Source: Escherichia phage vB_EcoM_ESCO8
Length of the DNA: 64,000 nt
Sequence record: OM386653.1
Reading direction: 5' to 3' (one strand)
In this document: in pieces, positions 52,827 through 59,593 of the stretch
Position numbering within the stretch: position 1 is the first letter of the stretch
Layout: every line of letters starts with the position of its first letter
Position numbers and translations under genes: made by a program
The notes under the pieces: generated by a model
The model's database searches: none
What the model was told of the DNA's origin: nothing
The model's input: only the letters and a program-made list of their open reading frames with translations

Positions 52827-53214
52827 CAACGGTATGAACCTGGACTCTGGTCTGTCTCCAAAGATTTCTATGGCACGACTAGAACAAGTTACTGGTCTTC
52901 GTCAAGTAAGTAATGGCGGTAAGATTATTCGTGATGACGCTGTACCTTTTAATAAATTTCAGATTGAACGTCATTACGATCCTGTAACTGCAAGTCTCAC
53001 TGGTGTAACTTTCTCAGGTTATCGTACTGCCGGATACCAACGTAAGGTTGTAGCTGAACGTATTAAAAATCGCAAACAGAAAATTGCAACATTGAAGAAA
53101 CTAGTAGAGAAAGATGTTTCAGAACTTCTTAACCTGTATGAAACTCTTGAGACAAAAGGTGAAGATCATAAACTCTTCTCTAAAGAAGATGTGAGCGTAA
53201 TTTTCACTGATTAA
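52783..53214 (+). CDS. hypothetical protein (start uncertain)
   Basis: ORF track 143 aa; overlaps MTase 3' end by 44 nt, later ATG possible. Confidence 0.4.
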   Translation: MSTLNSKITLKALINNGMNLDSGLSPKISMARLEQVTGLRQVSNGGKIIRDDAVPFNKFQIERHYDPVTASLTGVTFSGYRTAGYQRKVVAERIKNRKQKIATLKKLVEKDVSELLNLYETLETKGEDHKLFSKEDVSVIFTD

Positions 53215-53223
53215 GATAAAAGA

Positions 53224-53248
53224 AAAGGAGCCTATTGGCTCCTTTTTG
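53224..53248. terminator. Bidirectional terminator between convergent genes
   Basis: AAAAGGAGCC-tatt-GGCTCCTTTT with T/A runs both sides. Confidence 0.65.
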
Positions 53249-53249
53249 T

Positions 53250-55136
53250 TTATGTAACATTGACTGTAAATCTGACAAGAGGTGATAACACGTCATTATC
53301 AGCATCATAGTGTGCAACATCAAACACTGCTGTACCTGCTGCAAACCCGTATTGTTCAACCTGATCTGCATAAGTAAATGTGTAAGTGTTAGTATCAAGA
53401 GTTTGTTCTGTAAGAATTGCTGCTGTGAGGACGTTTACATTTCGGAAGTAATGTTTGGTATATCCTGCTGGTTCCCAAGAAATAATTGCATCTTGGTTAG
53501 CTTGTCTTACAGCGGCTCCTCCTGTTGGAACAGACATATCAACCCAAACAGGTGGTGTTGATGTTAAATCTGTACCGTCTGCTGCTGATTTAGCAAGTTT
53601 TGTAGCTGCTGTTTGATATACAGAAGAAATATAATGGATACGACCATCAATACCTTCTTCATAAACATAACCACTGTAACGTTCAGCACCATCTACCCAA
53701 GAACCAATGATAACATCATCACGTGCTGTAGAGATGGTTCTTTGTACATTTCTGTACTTCTGCCAATCCACACCATTAACTTCTACACCATATAAATAAG
53801 AACGTCCTAGGATCTGCCAAACAATTTTTGCTTGAGAAGCAGGAACTATTGTACGCATCTTATCAAAGATAGCTATCGTAGCATCATGGTAACGTGTAGT
53901 GTTACTGTACCTACCTGCAACAGTCGAAGATGCTGATACAGCATCATTTTCACCTTGTCCCCAAATAATTGCTTTAACCTTACTTGCATAAGGTGTGACT
54001 TTAGTGATAAAGTTAGTTAAGCATGGCCCATCTGCTGTGTTATCCAGATCATACCAGTAGTTGTCTGGTGTACCTGTTCCAGCTTTATCGTCAGCATATT
54101 TATCTGCTGCTGATGATCCAGAAGCTGTATTTAACGGAAGAACTTCAGCATTTGCTAAACCACGTTGCGTAGCATATGCATTACGGGTTGTTGTGCTACT
54201 CATTACTGCTTTATTTGCACCAGATAATTCTGTAAAGTGTGCATTTACGTTATCTTGTCCAGCAAAGACAATAACTTCTTTAATGAACGAATCATCTGTA
54301 GCTATTGAGTTATTAAAGATAACGGCTGCTGCTTTGGTGCTCTTAACGCTAATTTTAAGGTATGTTGGAGCAAACCCATAAAGAGGAATAGAGTCAGAGA
54401 TATCAAAGTAAGCGTAAGTATTCGTGGTTGTTGTAGTCCACTGAACACTATTATCACTTAAATCTAATACTTCTACAGTATAAGTATCACCGTCTAGTGG
54501 ATCAGTTACATCCCAAGCAACACGAACGTCTCCATAACTGTTTGCCACGGCTGTTACATTAGAAATAACAGGAATAGCATTAACACCTAAATAAGAACTA
54601 TCAGAGGCCACAACTGTTCCTTGATACGTTGCAGTACAACCTATACGGCAATTGCCATCTTTAAGAGCAGTTATTAATCCTGTAGGGCTTACAGTAGCTA
54701 CTTCTGGATCTGTTGTGGTGTATGTAATTACCATATCTGGAAGGTCTTTAGCACCTTCTGGACTGATTGTAGCAACCAACTGTTGAGTAGTGCCTACATC
54801 CATAGCCGATAGACTTTCAGTGTACACACTTAATTCTGAAGCATAACCACCAGATTGATCAGTTAAGACAGCACCTAAATTATTTTTAGCTGTCATTATT
54901 GCATCAAAACCACCTTCAGCAACAAACTCCATCATACCATTATTATCTATAACCATTTTGGTATTATCTGAAGATGAAAAAGCTATATCAAATAACGCAC
55001 CATCTTCGGGTGTAACTGTATATGTCAGTTGTTTTTTACTACCAACTATTGCAATGCCAATAGAGGAAGTGGTTATAGATGTAGCTGTTACTACTGAAGC
55101 TGATGTTGTTGACATAAATAAAGGAATAGGATACAT
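53250..55136 (-). CDS. Tail fiber / receptor-binding protein with Ig-like (Big_2) domains and SASA-type carbohydrate esterase domain
   Basis: 628 aa; Big_2-like ATVSPTGLITALKDGNCRIGCTA; esterase-like motifs IVFAGQDNVNAH and IIWGQGENDA. Confidence 0.55.
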   Translation of the reverse strand: MYPIPLFMSTTSASVVTATSITTSSIGIAIVGSKKQLTYTVTPEDGALFDIAFSSSDNTKMVIDNNGMMEFVAEGGFDAIMTAKNNLGAVLTDQSGGYASELSVYTESLSAMDVGTTQQLVATISPEGAKDLPDMVITYTTTDPEVATVSPTGLITALKDGNCRIGCTATYQGTVVASDSSYLGVNAIPVISNVTAVANSYGDVRVAWDVTDPLDGDTYTVEVLDLSDNSVQWTTTTTNTYAYFDISDSIPLYGFAPTYLKISVKSTKAAAVIFNNSIATDDSFIKEVIVFAGQDNVNAHFTELSGANKAVMSSTTTRNAYATQRGLANAEVLPLNTASGSSAADKYADDKAGTGTPDNYWYDLDNTADGPCLTNFITKVTPYASKVKAIIWGQGENDAVSASSTVAGRYSNTTRYHDATIAIFDKMRTIVPASQAKIVWQILGRSYLYGVEVNGVDWQKYRNVQRTISTARDDVIIGSWVDGAERYSGYVYEEGIDGRIHYISSVYQTAATKLAKSAADGTDLTSTPPVWVDMSVPTGGAAVRQANQDAIISWEPAGYTKHYFRNVNVLTAAILTEQTLDTNTYTFTYADQVEQYGFAAGTAVFDVAHYDADNDVLSPLVRFTVNVT

Positions 55137-55154: not shown

Positions 55155-55172
55155 AAGCCCCCGAAGGGGCTT
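55155..55172 (-). terminator. Hairpin terminator
   Basis: AAGCCCC-cgaa-GGGGCTT 3' of minus gene 55176..57137. Confidence 0.5.
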
Positions 55173-55175
55173 TGA

Positions 55176-57137
55176 TTATGTGCGTTTAGCAACAATAGCA
55201 TCCACGTAATCACCAACACCACAATATGTTAGTTGTAGTATTGTTACTCCGTTAGGATCTGTATTAATATCACTAGAACCAATTACTTTATAAGATGGAT
55301 CTAAAGTAACAGTACGACCTCCAGTGGCATCTTGGATAAGATAAACTATTGCAGAGAATGGTTTAGGTTTTGTGCTATCTTCGACACCAGGCCATGCTTT
55401 TATAGTAGAGTTACCAGTAAGATTCAACACATTCATGTTATGTGTTCCTGGAGGTGTCCAGTCACCTGTAACAGAGTTGTTGGTATATGCTGTAACCTCT
55501 ATAAAATTAGTTGTTACTTTTGTTGGAACTATATCTTGACCATCTACAGAACTGGTGAGTTCTTCCCATGCTCCATCTTTACGAGCATAGATCTTACCGT
55601 CACTAGGTGCATCTGTAATGCTAGGTAGTGTACCTTGAGAAGTCCAGACAGTTGCAGATGTTTTTAAGAACACCTCGCCAGTGGAGATATTAAAGGCATA
55701 ATCCCCTTGTTTACCATCACTAGAGATTGGATCTGTTGTTTTAACAATCCAAGTTGCACCGTCTGTACCGTTAGTACCAGCGTCACCTTTCTCACCCTTA
55801 TCACCTTTCAAACTGCCCATATCTACATATTCAGCAGTTTGAGTTTGTTCATCATAGGTGTAAATGTAAAGATGACCTGTGTCTTCCGTTAGATAAGCAT
55901 CACCGTAATTGGATGTAGGAGGAAGTGCACTTGCAGACGCAACGTGTCCTTTTGCAGTGATTGGAGTACCAGCTAAACGACCAACATTTGTCCACTGTGT
56001 GGCTCCTTGCAACCAAACCCAAAGTTCATTATTGATCAGATAACCATCACCATCTTCTCCAGTTTGTGGTAGTTCAGAAGTGTCAGTCAGAATATCAATA
56101 ATGGTCAACCCTGCACCAGTTGGCCCCGTCAAGCCTTGTATACCCTGCTCACCTTGATCACCCTTGTCTCCCTTATCACCTTTTTCTCCTTTCAGAGAGG
56201 CAATATATTCGTCAATAGTACCAACGTTACCAGCGTTTAACCAGACTTGATAAGCTGAATCACCAGTGTTACCCTTATCTCCTTTGTCGCCTTTATCTCC
56301 TTTTGGCCCCACTATAGCACCCATATTGATCCATTCTACACCGTTTGACACGTATAGATATGTACCAATACTCCATGCTTGAGATGTGTTTCCAGGAGAT
56401 GCAGAAGGAAGATCTGAAACGGAATTAGCTGCACCTTGGTAATCAAAACCATTAGCATTGTTACCTGGTACACCTTGTGGCCCCTCTGGGCCAGGCTCCC
56501 CTTTATCACCTTTAATTGAAGCAAGATAATCTAGTTCTGTACCTTGGTTTCCTGCTGCAAGCCAAACTTGATAAGCTGATTTACCTTCTGGCCCCTGTGA
56601 GTTTACTTTTCTCCAAGCAGTACCATCCCAAGCATACATATTCTCGCCTACAATCCATGCATCTCCTGCATTGTTTCCAGTTGTAGGTAATTGGTTGGTA
56701 TTAGATAGCGTCCCTAGCAGCTTTAATGGAGCACCTGGATCACCTTTTAAAGAAGCCAACCACTCTGTCTCAGTACCTTGGAAACCATTGTCTACGGCAA
56801 TCTGGTAAGCTGATTTACCAGCTTCTGGAATGGATTCTCTAAGATCTTCAATTTCAGCTTCAATAGCATCTAATTCTGATTCTATTTGAGCAATGTCATC
56901 TGCATTACCCACATTTTTCCAAGCTGTATCTGAAATACCTCCAGTAGATGTAGGAGTAGAGTTAGCAGGTACAACTTTAGGTAGAGAACCTTTCCACTGA
57001 TAGTAGTTACCGTCAGTTTCAAAGAGCAATGCTTCACGAGCATCTCTTAAGGTAAAACCACTTGCAAAACTTCTACGCTTTCTATAGCGAGACTCTACCA
57101 TGTCTGCAATGGCACTATTTGGACGTGTTAAAATCAC
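55176..57137 (-). CDS. Tail fiber protein with collagen-like Gly-X-Y repeats
   Basis: 653 aa; runs GDKGDKGDKGNTG and GEKGDKGDKGDQGEQGIQGLTGPTG. Confidence 0.65.
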   Translation of the reverse strand: MILTRPNSAIADMVESRYRKRRSFASGFTLRDAREALLFETDGNYYQWKGSLPKVVPANSTPTSTGGISDTAWKNVGNADDIAQIESELDAIEAEIEDLRESIPEAGKSAYQIAVDNGFQGTETEWLASLKGDPGAPLKLLGTLSNTNQLPTTGNNAGDAWIVGENMYAWDGTAWRKVNSQGPEGKSAYQVWLAAGNQGTELDYLASIKGDKGEPGPEGPQGVPGNNANGFDYQGAANSVSDLPSASPGNTSQAWSIGTYLYVSNGVEWINMGAIVGPKGDKGDKGDKGNTGDSAYQVWLNAGNVGTIDEYIASLKGEKGDKGDKGDQGEQGIQGLTGPTGAGLTIIDILTDTSELPQTGEDGDGYLINNELWVWLQGATQWTNVGRLAGTPITAKGHVASASALPPTSNYGDAYLTEDTGHLYIYTYDEQTQTAEYVDMGSLKGDKGEKGDAGTNGTDGATWIVKTTDPISSDGKQGDYAFNISTGEVFLKTSATVWTSQGTLPSITDAPSDGKIYARKDGAWEELTSSVDGQDIVPTKVTTNFIEVTAYTNNSVTGDWTPPGTHNMNVLNLTGNSTIKAWPGVEDSTKPKPFSAIVYLIQDATGGRTVTLDPSYKVIGSSDINTDPNGVTILQLTYCGVGDYVDAIVAKRT

Positions 57138-57178: not shown

Positions 57179-59593
57179 TTAAGCATTATTGACAGTAACA
57201 AAAGTAACAGGATTCAGAGCTTTAATTTGTGTATTCTCTGCTGTAGGTGTTACAATTGGATCTGCAATATCTATTGTGTACAAACTATTTGTCACGTATG
57301 TAGCACGTGCTATAGTTGTCACAAGATCGCCGCCATTTGCACCTGCACCTGGAATAACAATCTTAGTACCTGCTGCTTTAGCGTAGCCATTACTAGCCCA
57401 GTTTAAAGCATTAGACTGTAGATAGGTTTGACCTGTAACAGTTGCTTTTATTTTCTCGTTGGCACTAAAGAAAGCACCACCTACTGTAACAACATGTTTT
57501 TTACCGCTTGCACAATGAATAACTGTTCCAGTAGGGAATTCACGCCCACCTGGGAATTCATCATAAGCTGTAAAATATTGTTCAGAAATAGTAGTTAAAA
57601 CTGGCCCACGATGACCTGTACCATCAACAGCAGTTGGAACACCAAAGTTATTTCCAACCTGATCGCAACGATCAGTGTAGATTTTAGCAAAAGAAACTGT
57701 TGTTTCATCTCCGCTAAGTGCTGTACATCCTACCCACTTCATATACGTGAATTGGCTGCGAGTATAGAAACCGCCACCACTTCCTTCTCCGCTTCCGTGT
57801 TGACCAATAAAGTCAATACTACGGCAACGAATATTATTAAAGGTAGAGCTAGATGGTAGCCCACGCCATTTAAAAACATTACAATTGATGTTACTAACAA
57901 TTGTAGAGTTTTCCCAGGCATCTGATCCAGCCGTTGCAATCTCAATTGAAGATTCTGGAATATCCAAATTCTTAATTGTAAAGTTAATTGGTGGCCCCGC
58001 ATATCTTCCACTGTTAACACCCCAGTCAATAAAGACCATGCGTGTTGAAACAGACGGATCATTAAGCAGATAACCAGTTAAACCATCAACTTCAAAATCT
58101 TGGCATCCGTATAATGCAACACCACAAGTAGTTAAACCTGTACCTGTTGAAACTGCTGTGTTAGGATAAACTTCGTTATCACGTATTGTGAAGTTTTTAC
58201 CCATTTCAACGTGTAGACATTGACGGCAATTGTAAACCCTATTCCCAACGATACTGAAATTACGTACATATTGTGAGTCAGGAACATCAACACCATATGG
58301 GCCACTACCTGCTACACCAATACCAATACCCCAGTTTGCCCCTTGTCCAGAAGCATCTACGTTAGCAATGTGGTTATTCTCGATAATCAAACCTTCAGTG
58401 TAGTGTTTTTGAACTACGTTAAGTTCAATAGCATCACCTTTAATATCGTGAATATAGTTGTTAGAGTAACGCCCGTAGGTCATTACTTCTCCAGTACCTT
58501 GTTGCAGGATCGCATATTTACAACCATACATTTCGTTGTAACTGAAGTCCAACGTACCTTCACTTGTCATTGCTTGCATTAAGAATGCTGCTGTAGATGT
58601 TGCGTTGGAGAAGATATTACGATAGAATCGGCAATCACCACCTAACATCTTAACATAACATTTTTCAAAGCGAACGTTTTCCATCCAACAGGACACAGTA
58701 GAAATCATTGTTCCACCGTTACCAGTGAATGTACCACCATACCAACGAATACCAGACATAGCAATTGAGCTTGTGAATCTATAATTCTTATCTGCACGTA
58801 CTTGAATGTTATTCGTGTTAGCGAAAGTAATAGTTTTTAAAATTGCTTGAGTATCATCGGTAACTCCATCACCAATTGCACCAAACTGCTCAGGCGTTAC
58901 AAAGTATTGAGCTTGTAACAGGTTGCCTCCAGATGGAAGACCAACCATTGCTGCACCAGTGGTAGATGACAAAAGGTTTTTCTCTACGTAAGAAGTAGAG
59001 GCTGTTGTTTTACCAATAAAAGCAAACAATTTGTTAGGTAGACCAGTAGACGGATCTAAACCTAATGGTTCTGCCAGAATAATTTTACTATCTCTGATAG
59101 TAAATGCTTCACCTTGAATCTGAATTACACCGTTAATGGTGACAATAGCATTATCAAAGATATAAGGAGGACTGATTTCTGTTTCATATCCTGTAGCACC
59201 TTTAAAATACCAAGGATACACATCTGAAGCTAACTGTTCAGTTTTAAGAGCGTATAGAGTCCAGTTACTGTCTCCTACAGGTGTACCCTGCATAGGTACA
59301 GGGTTCGCAGTAGTGGCAGATGGGGCATAATAGTACCCACTCAAGATACCGTTTTCAAAATAACGTAACTGGTTAAATACAGTTTCAGTTGATCCTGCTG
59401 ACCAAGCAACAGGACTCTTAAAGAAGAAGTTATCAACAAGTGCTTTACGCAGTGTAGGTATTAAACCTGTTTCGGTTTCTACAGTTGCTGTAGCATCTCC
59501 ATTAATAACATCATGCATCTGGTTAGACGAGAATATAACAAGATCAACACCTTGTTCTAGTGTCGTAGCAGGATATGTTGGAAAATTCGCCAT
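57179..59593 (-). CDS. Tailspike protein (pectate-lyase-like beta-helix)
   Basis: 804 aa; GAIGDGVTDDTQAIL motif typical of beta-helix depolymerases; G/N/S-rich repeats. Confidence 0.65.
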   Translation of the reverse strand: MANFPTYPATTLEQGVDLVIFSSNQMHDVINGDATATVETETGLIPTLRKALVDNFFFKSPVAWSAGSTETVFNQLRYFENGILSGYYYAPSATTANPVPMQGTPVGDSNWTLYALKTEQLASDVYPWYFKGATGYETEISPPYIFDNAIVTINGVIQIQGEAFTIRDSKIILAEPLGLDPSTGLPNKLFAFIGKTTASTSYVEKNLLSSTTGAAMVGLPSGGNLLQAQYFVTPEQFGAIGDGVTDDTQAILKTITFANTNNIQVRADKNYRFTSSIAMSGIRWYGGTFTGNGGTMISTVSCWMENVRFEKCYVKMLGGDCRFYRNIFSNATSTAAFLMQAMTSEGTLDFSYNEMYGCKYAILQQGTGEVMTYGRYSNNYIHDIKGDAIELNVVQKHYTEGLIIENNHIANVDASGQGANWGIGIGVAGSGPYGVDVPDSQYVRNFSIVGNRVYNCRQCLHVEMGKNFTIRDNEVYPNTAVSTGTGLTTCGVALYGCQDFEVDGLTGYLLNDPSVSTRMVFIDWGVNSGRYAGPPINFTIKNLDIPESSIEIATAGSDAWENSTIVSNINCNVFKWRGLPSSSTFNNIRCRSIDFIGQHGSGEGSGGGFYTRSQFTYMKWVGCTALSGDETTVSFAKIYTDRCDQVGNNFGVPTAVDGTGHRGPVLTTISEQYFTAYDEFPGGREFPTGTVIHCASGKKHVVTVGGAFFSANEKIKATVTGQTYLQSNALNWASNGYAKAAGTKIVIPGAGANGGDLVTTIARATYVTNSLYTIDIADPIVTPTAENTQIKALNPVTFVTVNNA

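Follow-up and report, generated by a model that had tools for sequence, protein, structure and literature searches.

Gly-X-Y tracts of the fibre gene

The window analysed here is a 64,000-nucleotide (nt) stretch of Escherichia phage vB_EcoM_ESCO8 (sequence record OM386653.1), and the element in question is a tail-fibre gene at 55176–57137 on the minus strand, whose product carries collagen-like Gly-X-Y tracts. The open reading frame (ORF) is 1962 nt long, starts with GTG, has AAGGAG about 7 nt upstream of the start codon and encodes 653 amino acids (aa) plus stop; it is present in the ORF list and is the orthologue of phi92 gp151. Its best match, at 100% identity, was the gene of Escherichia phage outra (MN850645.1) annotated as "putative tail fiber protein"; in the remaining 39 of the 40 closest phage records, which belong to Justusliebigvirus (phi92-like) and include phi92 gene 151, identity ranged from 97.6 to 99.1%. 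PHROG 15437 ("tail fiber protein") covered the ESCO8 fibre end to end. In phi92, the colanidase tailspike gene (gp150) immediately precedes gene 151 within the tail-fibre cluster, and in ESCO8 the fibre gene is flanked by the gp150 orthologue and by another fibre gene with immunoglobulin (Ig)-like domains. phi92 gp151 and its Justusliebigvirus orthologues are the same gene as the ESCO8 fibre, with 97.6–100% nt identity and the same cluster position, and the comparison with phi92 gp151 itself (97.7% identity) revealed no difference of substance, although the phi92 record annotates the central domain as a predicted coiled-coil fold and not as collagen-like. Other records do name the collagen: that of the BASEL phage Bas61 (EmilieFrey) labels the orthologue "lateral tail fiber protein with type I collagen domain", and further orthologues are recorded as "collagen-like protein" or "collagen triple helix repeat protein". 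A collagen-like fibre gene is already annotated in relatives, and the feature is of a known kind.

The same gene, at full length and 97.6% identity, was also present in GenBank records MG065639, MG065645, MG065656 and MG065689 (each approximately 146.4 kb), which are named "Campylobacter phage" with Campylobacter jejuni as host. This host label looks doubtful, as would follow, for example, from contamination or mis-assignment.

The fibre contains four uninterrupted Gly-X-Y tracts of 6, 6, 9 and 6 triplets, each of which reaches the at least six contiguous triplets by which collagen is defined (quoted in PMC11923368), together with two additional 2-triplet stubs (GDPGA and GPEGK). The tracts are located as follows.

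56457–56510, minus strand: tract T1, residues 210–227, 6 triplets (GDK GEP GPE GPQ GVP GNN; GDKGEPGPEGPQGVPGNN)
56256–56309, minus strand: tract T2, residues 277–294, 6 triplets (GPK GDK GDK GDK GNT GDS)
56109–56189, minus strand: tract T3, residues 317–343, 9 triplets (GEKGDKGDKGDQGEQGIQGLTGPTG)
55752–55805, minus strand: tract T4, residues 445–462, 6 triplets (GDK GEK GDA GTN GTD GAT; GDKGEKGDAGTNGTDGAT)

The initial annotation, made from the letters of the window, had reported such repeats at two positions. Both of the strings that it quoted are present, GDKGDKGDKG beginning at residue 280 inside T2 and the second, GEKGDKGDKGDQGEQGIQGLTGPTG, beginning at residue 317 and corresponding to T3, while T1 and T4 had been overlooked. 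When the same protein was shuffled 2000 times, runs with at least six in-register glycines occurred at a mean of 0.001, as compared with the four observed, and only two of the shuffles reached six in-register glycines at all. In addition, the Pfam family Collagen (PF01391, InterPro IPR008160) matched with 32.5 bits against a gathering cutoff of 27.2 (E-value 7.4e-08), with its best stretch at residues 317–341. Taken together, the excess over shuffles and the above-cutoff match indicate that the tracts are real and not due to chance. The LPXTG collagen-like adhesins Scl1, Scl2 and Lcl (NCBIfam) were rejected as relatives, since they scored 28–52 bits against cutoffs of 325–500, which reflects compositional similarity only.

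The tracts had also been described as prone to length variation. Within the genus, the gene was exactly 1962 nt long in 40 of the best 40 megablast phage records, and 12 of the 14 listed members of the 308-member cluster at 90% identity were 653 aa long. The sole indel found at this level was one extra GEK triplet in T4, carried by two 656-aa cluster members and by the 1971-nt gene of SD2, PD06 and PHB05. At the DNA level, the extra T4 unit reads GGTGAAAAA beside GGTGAGAAA, and because the two are separated by a synonymous substitution, it would represent an old duplication or deletion and not active slippage. The short and the long T4 alleles were each found in one contig of IMG/VR, which is uninformative for allele frequency.

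Between genera, tract lengths were compared across 13 orthologues using an anchor definition under which T1 measures 17 residues. T1 was always 17 residues long, T2 measured 14, 17, 23, 26, 29 or 32 residues, T3 measured 24, 27 or 30 residues (one triplet either way at most), and T4, the most variable tract, measured 8, 11, 17, 23, 26, 29, 32 or 38 residues. The wide variation of T2 and T4 between genera was observed, for example, in Phapecoctavirus orthologues, at approximately 63.5% nt identity. All steps were multiples of three, with one apparent exception, the T4 of orthologue P0014 (16 residues), which adjoins a large downstream deletion; in contrast, indels outside the tracts were of 1–5 residues and were not quantised. 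The Gly-X-Y register was perfect in all six stretches (the four tracts and the two stubs) in the 13 full-length orthologues (13/13), which share 57–61% identity, and the major-allele frequency within the tracts was 1.00 for Gly, 0.53–0.62 for X and 0.74–0.77 for Y. Tract length therefore changes by whole triplets, and slowly: between genera, and marginally within the genus. The repeat-number comparison across related phages that the initial annotation had proposed thus bears out variation in T2 and T4, and by one triplet at most in T3, but not rapid variation, as gene length is near-fixed within the genus and T1 is invariant. As T2, T3 and T4 do vary, the tracts are not the invariant repeats, too short for a triple helix, that were named there as the contrary outcome.

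The underlying DNA had been described as repetitive and as a likely recombination hotspot. No exact tandem DNA repeats were present in the gene, in which the longest exact self-match was 5 nt at a 9-nt offset and 11 nt at an 18-nt offset. Tandem Repeats Finder returned 9-nt-period arrays only (2–4.6 copies, 71–90% match), and a gapless repeat search gave 47-nt copies that were just 64–74% identical. Even the adjacent GDK-GDK-GDK triplets differ in their codons (GGAGATAAA GGCGACAAA GGAGATAAG). Among the exact direct repeats of the gene, the longest measures 14 nt; it lies in the GKSAY motif, outside the collagen tracts, and its length was reached by 10 of 200 codon shuffles. With imperfect 9-nt arrays, alternating codons and a longest repeat near chance expectation, the DNA can be called repetitive in a weak sense at most.

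The T3-coding DNA at 56142–56189, which encodes GEKGDKGDKGDQGEQ, was 81–92% identical over approximately 50–70 nt to tail-fibre genes of unrelated phages, including Salmonella phages PVP-SE1 and SSE121, Aeromonas phage 65.2, Pseudomonas phage PhiPA3, Lactobacillus phage JCL1032 and others. These matches are due either to convergent evolution imposed by the coding of Gly-Asp/Glu-Lys or to short segments common to the genes.

A hotspot or contingency function, in which frequent slippage or recombination at the tracts would give rise to fibre-length or host-range variants within populations, would agree with these T3 matches, with the 9-nt (one-triplet) insertion polymorphism of T4 within the genus, with the wide differences in T2 and T4 between genera and with the homology breakpoint of Citrobacter phage Tr1 in T4. 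Nevertheless, we consider it very improbable: neighbouring identical triplets use different codons and are not exact tandem repeats, the 653-aa form prevails in the genus, the inserted GEK unit bears the mark of an old event, and four of the five mosaic breakpoints lie outside the tracts, at the boundary between the foldon and the C-terminal domain described below. A slipped-strand contingency locus was rejected on account of the lack of exact repeats, and the hotspot proposal is left largely unsupported.

Domain map and trimerization elements

Apart from the tracts, the fibre consists of an N-terminal anchor, a coiled coil, two kinds of small folded module (named S and H and defined by iterating local hidden Markov models (HMMs) over homologues), a foldon and a C-terminal domain. 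From the N- to the C-terminus, the order is anchor, coiled coil, S, H, S, T1, H, T2, S, T3, H, H, T4, H, foldon, C-terminal domain. The elements other than the tracts are listed below, where AF2 refers to an AlphaFold2 monomer model.

56907–57107, minus strand: N-terminal anchor Tail_spike_N (PF18668), CBA120 TSP1 / G7C gp66 type, residues 11–77
56823–56906, minus strand: alpha-helical coiled coil of three heptads, residues 78–105, from hydrophobic spacing
56739–56822, minus strand: S module 1, helix-turn-helix (GKSAYQIAVDNGFQGTETEWLASLKGD), residues 106–133, from HMM and two short helices in AF2
56592–56705, minus strand: H module 1, small beta unit (LP..G..GDAW.V....YAWDG.AW..V), residues 145–182, from HMM (E 1.4e-14) and four strands in AF2
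56505–56588, minus strand: S module 2, residues 184–211, from HMM and AF2
56307–56429, minus strand: H module 2, residues 237–277, from HMM (E 3.2e-11) and AF2 strands
56184–56267, minus strand: S module 3, residues 291–318, from HMM
55968–56087, minus strand: H module 3, residues 351–390, from HMM (E 1.2e-13)
55803–55943, minus strand: H module 4, residues 399–445, from HMM (E 4.7e-11)
55632–55736, minus strand: H-like module 5, weaker, residues 468–502, from three AF2 strands at 480–503
55551–55634, minus strand: foldon (fibritin-type trimerization hairpin), DAPSDGKIYARKDGAWEEL, residues 502–529, from Fibritin_C, blastn and AF2 hairpin
55179–55550, minus strand: C-terminal all-beta domain, presumed receptor-binding tip, residues 530–653, from PF26209 (Phage_phiTE_241_C), precomputed on relatives

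The anchor was recognized by PF18668 on residues 11–77 with 75.5 bits against a cutoff of 25 (E 3.6e-21), and the PDB matches of this region were solely tailspike or tail-fibre chains (9vvr, 5w6h, 4oj5, 5w6f and others), down to E 5e-14. Together with the orthology to phi92 gp151 and the position in the tail-fibre cluster, the anchor supports the initial designation of the gene as a tail fibre. In the coiled coil that follows, residues I82, I85, L89, I92, I96, L99 and I103 show a 3-4-3-4-3-4 spacing of hydrophobics.

The S module comprises 28 residues with the consensus DGKSAYQLAVDNGFTGTEAEWLASLKGE / GKSAYQLAVDNGFTGTEAEWLASLKG, and the H module approximately 40 residues with the consensus ...LPATGNNVGDAYLVGGDLYVWDGTAWVNVG... 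/ LP.TGN.GDAYLVG..LYVWDGTAW.NVG. In the AF2 monomer of residues 100–300, the S modules fold as pairs of short helices and the H modules as four-stranded beta units, at block-mean predicted local distance difference test (pLDDT) values of 79–88. The H-like module 5 was used as a seed of the H profile and was not recovered at E ≤1e-4. The S-H-S segment (residues 100–209), searched against 1.84 billion cluster representatives, matched 8250 of them at E ≤0.001 and 2385 at the stricter E ≤1e-10, and as many as 38 separate stretches of one protein matched. In the best 120 homologues, the collagen tracts were 3–31 triplets long and abutted an S or H module upstream in 86% of cases and downstream in 84%. 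Neither module matched a Pfam family above threshold, the sole match being a weak, sub-threshold one of DUF2934 to S; no PDB match with E <2 to the folds of the S and H modules was obtained with Foldseek, and the S-module profile retrieved only spurious designed-ankyrin matches from the PDB. The mildly novel aspect of this fibre is the presence of abundant S and H modules that bracket the tracts and are without a curated family or a solved structure.

The one PDB match of the H-module profile was weak, to the phiKZ capsid protein gp184 (8y6v_I, E 0.003), and gp184 recurred non-significantly in Foldseek together with a crAss001 capsid fragment, which would be in line with a head (capsid) fibre or decoration protein in place of a tail fibre. 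We regard this assignment as quite unlikely, because the protein begins with a tailspike docking domain whose PDB matches are exclusively tailspikes and tail fibres, its gene lies inside the tail-fibre cluster, and the phi92 head model contains only the major capsid protein and a cement protein (PMC13450770); moreover, the structural matches to capsid proteins are all below significance.

The foldon is a classic trimerization hairpin. Its Pfam family, Fibritin_C (PF07921), matched the ESCO8 fibre with 19.5 and 20.1 bits, below the gathering cutoff of 21, with the last ~28 of the 93 profile positions aligned, and the region matched fibritin or foldon chains of the PDB weakly (E 0.05–0.6). AF2 placed a beta hairpin at residues 517–526. 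The homology was settled by sensitive blastn, in which query positions 383–439 (approximately residues 509–527) matched 57 nt of the fibritin gene of the T-even Mosigvirus phage SF (82.5% identity, E 8e-6); the matched segment lies in the final ~70 nt of the SF fibritin coding sequence. The C-terminus of SF fibritin, ...DAPSDGKFYVRKDGAWVELPTA*, and gp151 DAPSDGKIYARKDGAWEEL (residues 508–526) were identical at 16 of 19 residues. Judged by these similarities, residues 502–529 are a genuine internal foldon, which comes directly after the series of collagen tracts and before the tip domain. As compared with the foldon of T4-type fibritin, with which it has this 16/19 identity in common, it is internal and followed by a 124-residue tip, whereas in fibritin the foldon forms the end of the protein after an alpha-helical coiled coil. 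At the DNA level, the 82.5% nt identity to the 3′ end of the Mosigvirus SF fibritin gene falls at 55558–55614 (L008 1801–1857), which points to a small trimerization unit that may have been exchanged fairly recently between unrelated myophage lineages.

The C-terminal domain was assigned from a precomputed PF26209 match on the 98%-identical cluster representative (P0001) and on the 656-aa allele, while our own Pfam scans returned none. Sliding identity against the distant relatives P0016, P0017, P0019 and P0021 ran at 40–90% along the shaft and collapsed at approximately residues 510–526; against Citrobacter phage Tr1 (P0015) it collapsed earlier, at approximately residue 450, inside T4. The collapse near the foldon shows that the tip is exchangeable among relatives, and an exchangeable C-terminal domain is more likely to be the specificity determinant than the repeat tracts, for which the initial annotation had suggested a possible effect on host range. 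Residues 506–653 alone gave no match in a word-indexed protein search; even the near-identical cluster representative was missed. Proteins carrying this domain are retrieved with the full-length query, so that this result reflects a limit of the word index and not an absence.

Conformation of the tracts and the proposed fibre

The composition of the tracts is that of viral collagens. The X position holds Asp or Glu in 57% of the triplets and Pro in 17%, the Y position holds Lys or Arg in 43%, Gln in 17%, Thr in 13% and Pro in 9%, and aromatic residues, Cys and His are lacking at both. Viral collagens listed in PMC3368898 (Table 4) have a matching X/Y composition. K/R-G-D/E pairs occur in 9 of 23 triplets; KGD and KGE salt bridges kinetically stabilize triple helices, and among viral collagen-like proteins KGD occurs particularly often (PMC11923368). 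Recombinant collagen-like tail proteins of E. coli prophages form trimers with a collagen signature in circular dichroism, as shown for EPclA (PMC3368898). Furthermore, the folding of collagen is nucleated at the C-terminus and proceeds like a zipper in the N-terminal direction (PMC11923368), with which the position of the foldon C-terminal to all tracts fits. Given the invariant glycines, the whole-triplet indels, the composition, the K-G-D/E pairs, the coiled coil and the C-terminal foldon, the best-supported reading is a segmented trimeric tail fibre in which the tracts most likely form short triple-helical spacers. The triple helices that the initial annotation had suggested are therefore plausible, with indirect support from the perfect register and from trimerization elements, including the foldon, on the flanks of the tracts.

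Several observations weigh against triple helices. In the AF2 monomer the tracts appear as low-confidence coil, with pLDDT <50, although this is as expected of a structure that is obligately inter-chain. Isolated tracts as short (6–9 triplets) and proline-poor as these might be no more than marginally stable. In a 2026 electron cryomicroscopy (cryo-EM) study of phi92, gp151 could not be assigned to any fibre density, and its AF3 model fits the fibre II density poorly (PMC13450770). The collagen-like part of FibU of staphylococcal phage 80alpha is disordered in cryo-EM, and FibU appears as dimers in the ring (PMC7048315). In our PDB search, no solved homologue spanned the tracts.

The same low model confidence, the shortness of the tracts and their modest proline content would also suit flexible glycine-rich linkers or hinges, placed between folded trimeric knots and making the fibre bendable, and the collagen-like parts of 80alpha FibU and phi24B gp61 are likewise unresolved or described as flexible. 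However, a disordered linker needs neither a glycine at every third position that stays invariant across orthologues of 57–61% identity, nor indels confined to multiples of three residues, nor a position-specific preference for Asp/Glu at X and Lys/Gln/Thr at Y with K-G-D/E pairs. Flexibility is, moreover, compatible with a triple helix, as the junctions with the knots could act as hinges. Linkers in place of stable triple helices are thus unlikely, and triple-helical spacers remain the reading that we favour.

On this basis, we propose that this phi92-like myophage probably uses the gene product as a homotrimeric tail fibre, composed of an anchor, a coiled coil, a segmented shaft with four triple helices and an exchangeable tip. 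The tailspike-type anchor would dock the fibre onto the branched receptor-binding apparatus, and the three-heptad coiled coil after it would lead into a shaft built like beads on a string. There, four hydroxyproline-free collagen-like triple helices would act as thin spacer rods alternating with S and H modules, with the foldon after the last tract. Calculated at 0.286 nm per residue, the rods would be approximately 5.1, 5.1, 7.7 and 5.1 nm long, approximately 23 nm in total. Chain register and helix nucleation would be provided by the folded modules and the foldon, and helix stability by interchain Lys-Asp/Glu salt bridges (K-G-D/E); whole-triplet length changes would alter the reach of the fibre. 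The all-beta, exchangeable C-terminal tip presumably binds a host surface structure.

Neighbouring genes and relation to other fibres

Upstream of the fibre gene, the colanidase at 57179–59593 (minus strand), a WcaM-like orthologue of gp150, carries the N-terminal domain PF26208 (Phage_phiTE_241_N). PF26208 and the PF26209 assigned to the collagen-like fibre are named after one phiTE protein and here occur on two adjacent genes, which suggests domain shuffling between fibres; the phiTE structure paper makes no mention of protein 241. Just downstream, the gene at 53250–55136 (minus strand) encodes 628 aa with two Big_2 Ig-like domains, residues 278–438 of which resemble PDB 9lc0_I ("Non-contractile tail sheath", E 2e-25), and has a weak match to SASA acetylesterase (E 0.018). 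The content of this slot varies among close relatives: phi92 has two small ORFs (gp152 and gp153), Bas61 encodes a protein of 943 aa with "intimin and glycosidase domains", and the corresponding proteins on metagenomic contigs are 628 or 939 aa long, while the adjacent collagen-like fibre is at least 97% identical throughout.

Promoter-like sites in the region numbered 21, as compared with 21.6 expected from shuffles, and a promoter or terminator role of the region was rejected, as these sites do not exceed the shuffle expectation. Immediately 3′ of the fibre stop codon, at 55155–55172 (minus strand), lies a GC-rich, terminator-like hairpin (AAGCCCCTTCGGGGGCTT) whose T run is poor (ATTGTTTAAG); AAGGAGA, the ribosome-binding site of the next gene, comes after it. 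A symmetric stem-loop with a 10–11-bp stem and T runs on each strand is located at 53222–53247 (both strands), between convergent genes ending at 53214 (plus strand) and 53250 (minus strand), and is likely a bidirectional terminator closing the tail-fibre cluster.

Among known fibres, the E. coli prophage proteins EPclA–D (Ghosh et al. 2012, PMC3368898) resemble the ESCO8 protein in being phage side-tail fibres with hydroxyproline-free Gly-X-Y repeats, Asp/Glu-rich at X and Lys/Gln/Thr-rich at Y, flanked by coiled-coil and C-terminal trimerization domains. They differ in that EPclA is described as having one collagen triple-helical domain as compared with four short tracts split by S and H modules, and in that Pro occupies 48% of X positions in EPcl proteins versus 17% in the ESCO8 fibre. 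The PfN-Col-PCoil-PfC/Pf2 architecture of the EPcl proteins was not found here, as no phage-fibre N, C or repeat-2 Pfam family matched at E ≤0.1. CBA120 TSP1–4 and G7C gp66 have the PF18668 tail-docking domain in common with the ESCO8 fibre (4oj5, 5w6h, 5w6f), but continue as beta-helix depolymerase bodies, whereas the ESCO8 protein continues as a collagen-and-knot shaft in which no enzymatic domain was detected. Fibres of similar layout are gp42 of Agrobacterium phage Miki, modelled with AF3 as a segmented collagen triple helix interspersed with beta insertions (PMC13611946), and the collagen-like shafts reported for phi24B gp61 and 80alpha FibU (for the latter, PMC7048315). In these three fibres, beta or coiled-coil insertions likewise interrupt the collagen, and the protein ends in a small globular domain, but their anchors and tips are different and their collagen is longer (approximately 180 aa in Miki; shaft residues 243–567 in phi24B).

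For annotation, these results confirm the ORF as the conserved collagen-like fibre of phi92-like phages and provide a domain map at residue level. To a specialist this will be unsurprising, as it has been clear since the 1990s that phage fibres can contain collagen-like segments, and the annotation of this gene already says so. For protein engineering, the fibre offers a natural foldon C-terminal to short, salt-bridge-rich, hydroxyproline-free collagen, the same design as that of synthetic collagen–foldon fusions; engineered (GPP)n–foldon fusions with the foldon C-terminal to the collagen segments, as in the ESCO8 fibre, were reportedly made by Frank et al. in 2001 and by Stetefeld et al. in 2003. 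For the biology of phi92, the domain map suggests expression constructs and identifies the foldon-delimited tip as a receptor-binding candidate. More tentatively, and with well under an even chance in our estimation, the S and H modules may constitute a very large uncurated family of trimer-registering knots that nucleate short collagen helices in phage and prophage fibres, with gp151 as a minimal member and an unplaced component of the multivalent adsorption apparatus of phi92. If this were true, changes in the number of T2 and T4 triplets would tune how far gp151 reaches in comparison with the receptor-binding proteins that accompany it in the apparatus.

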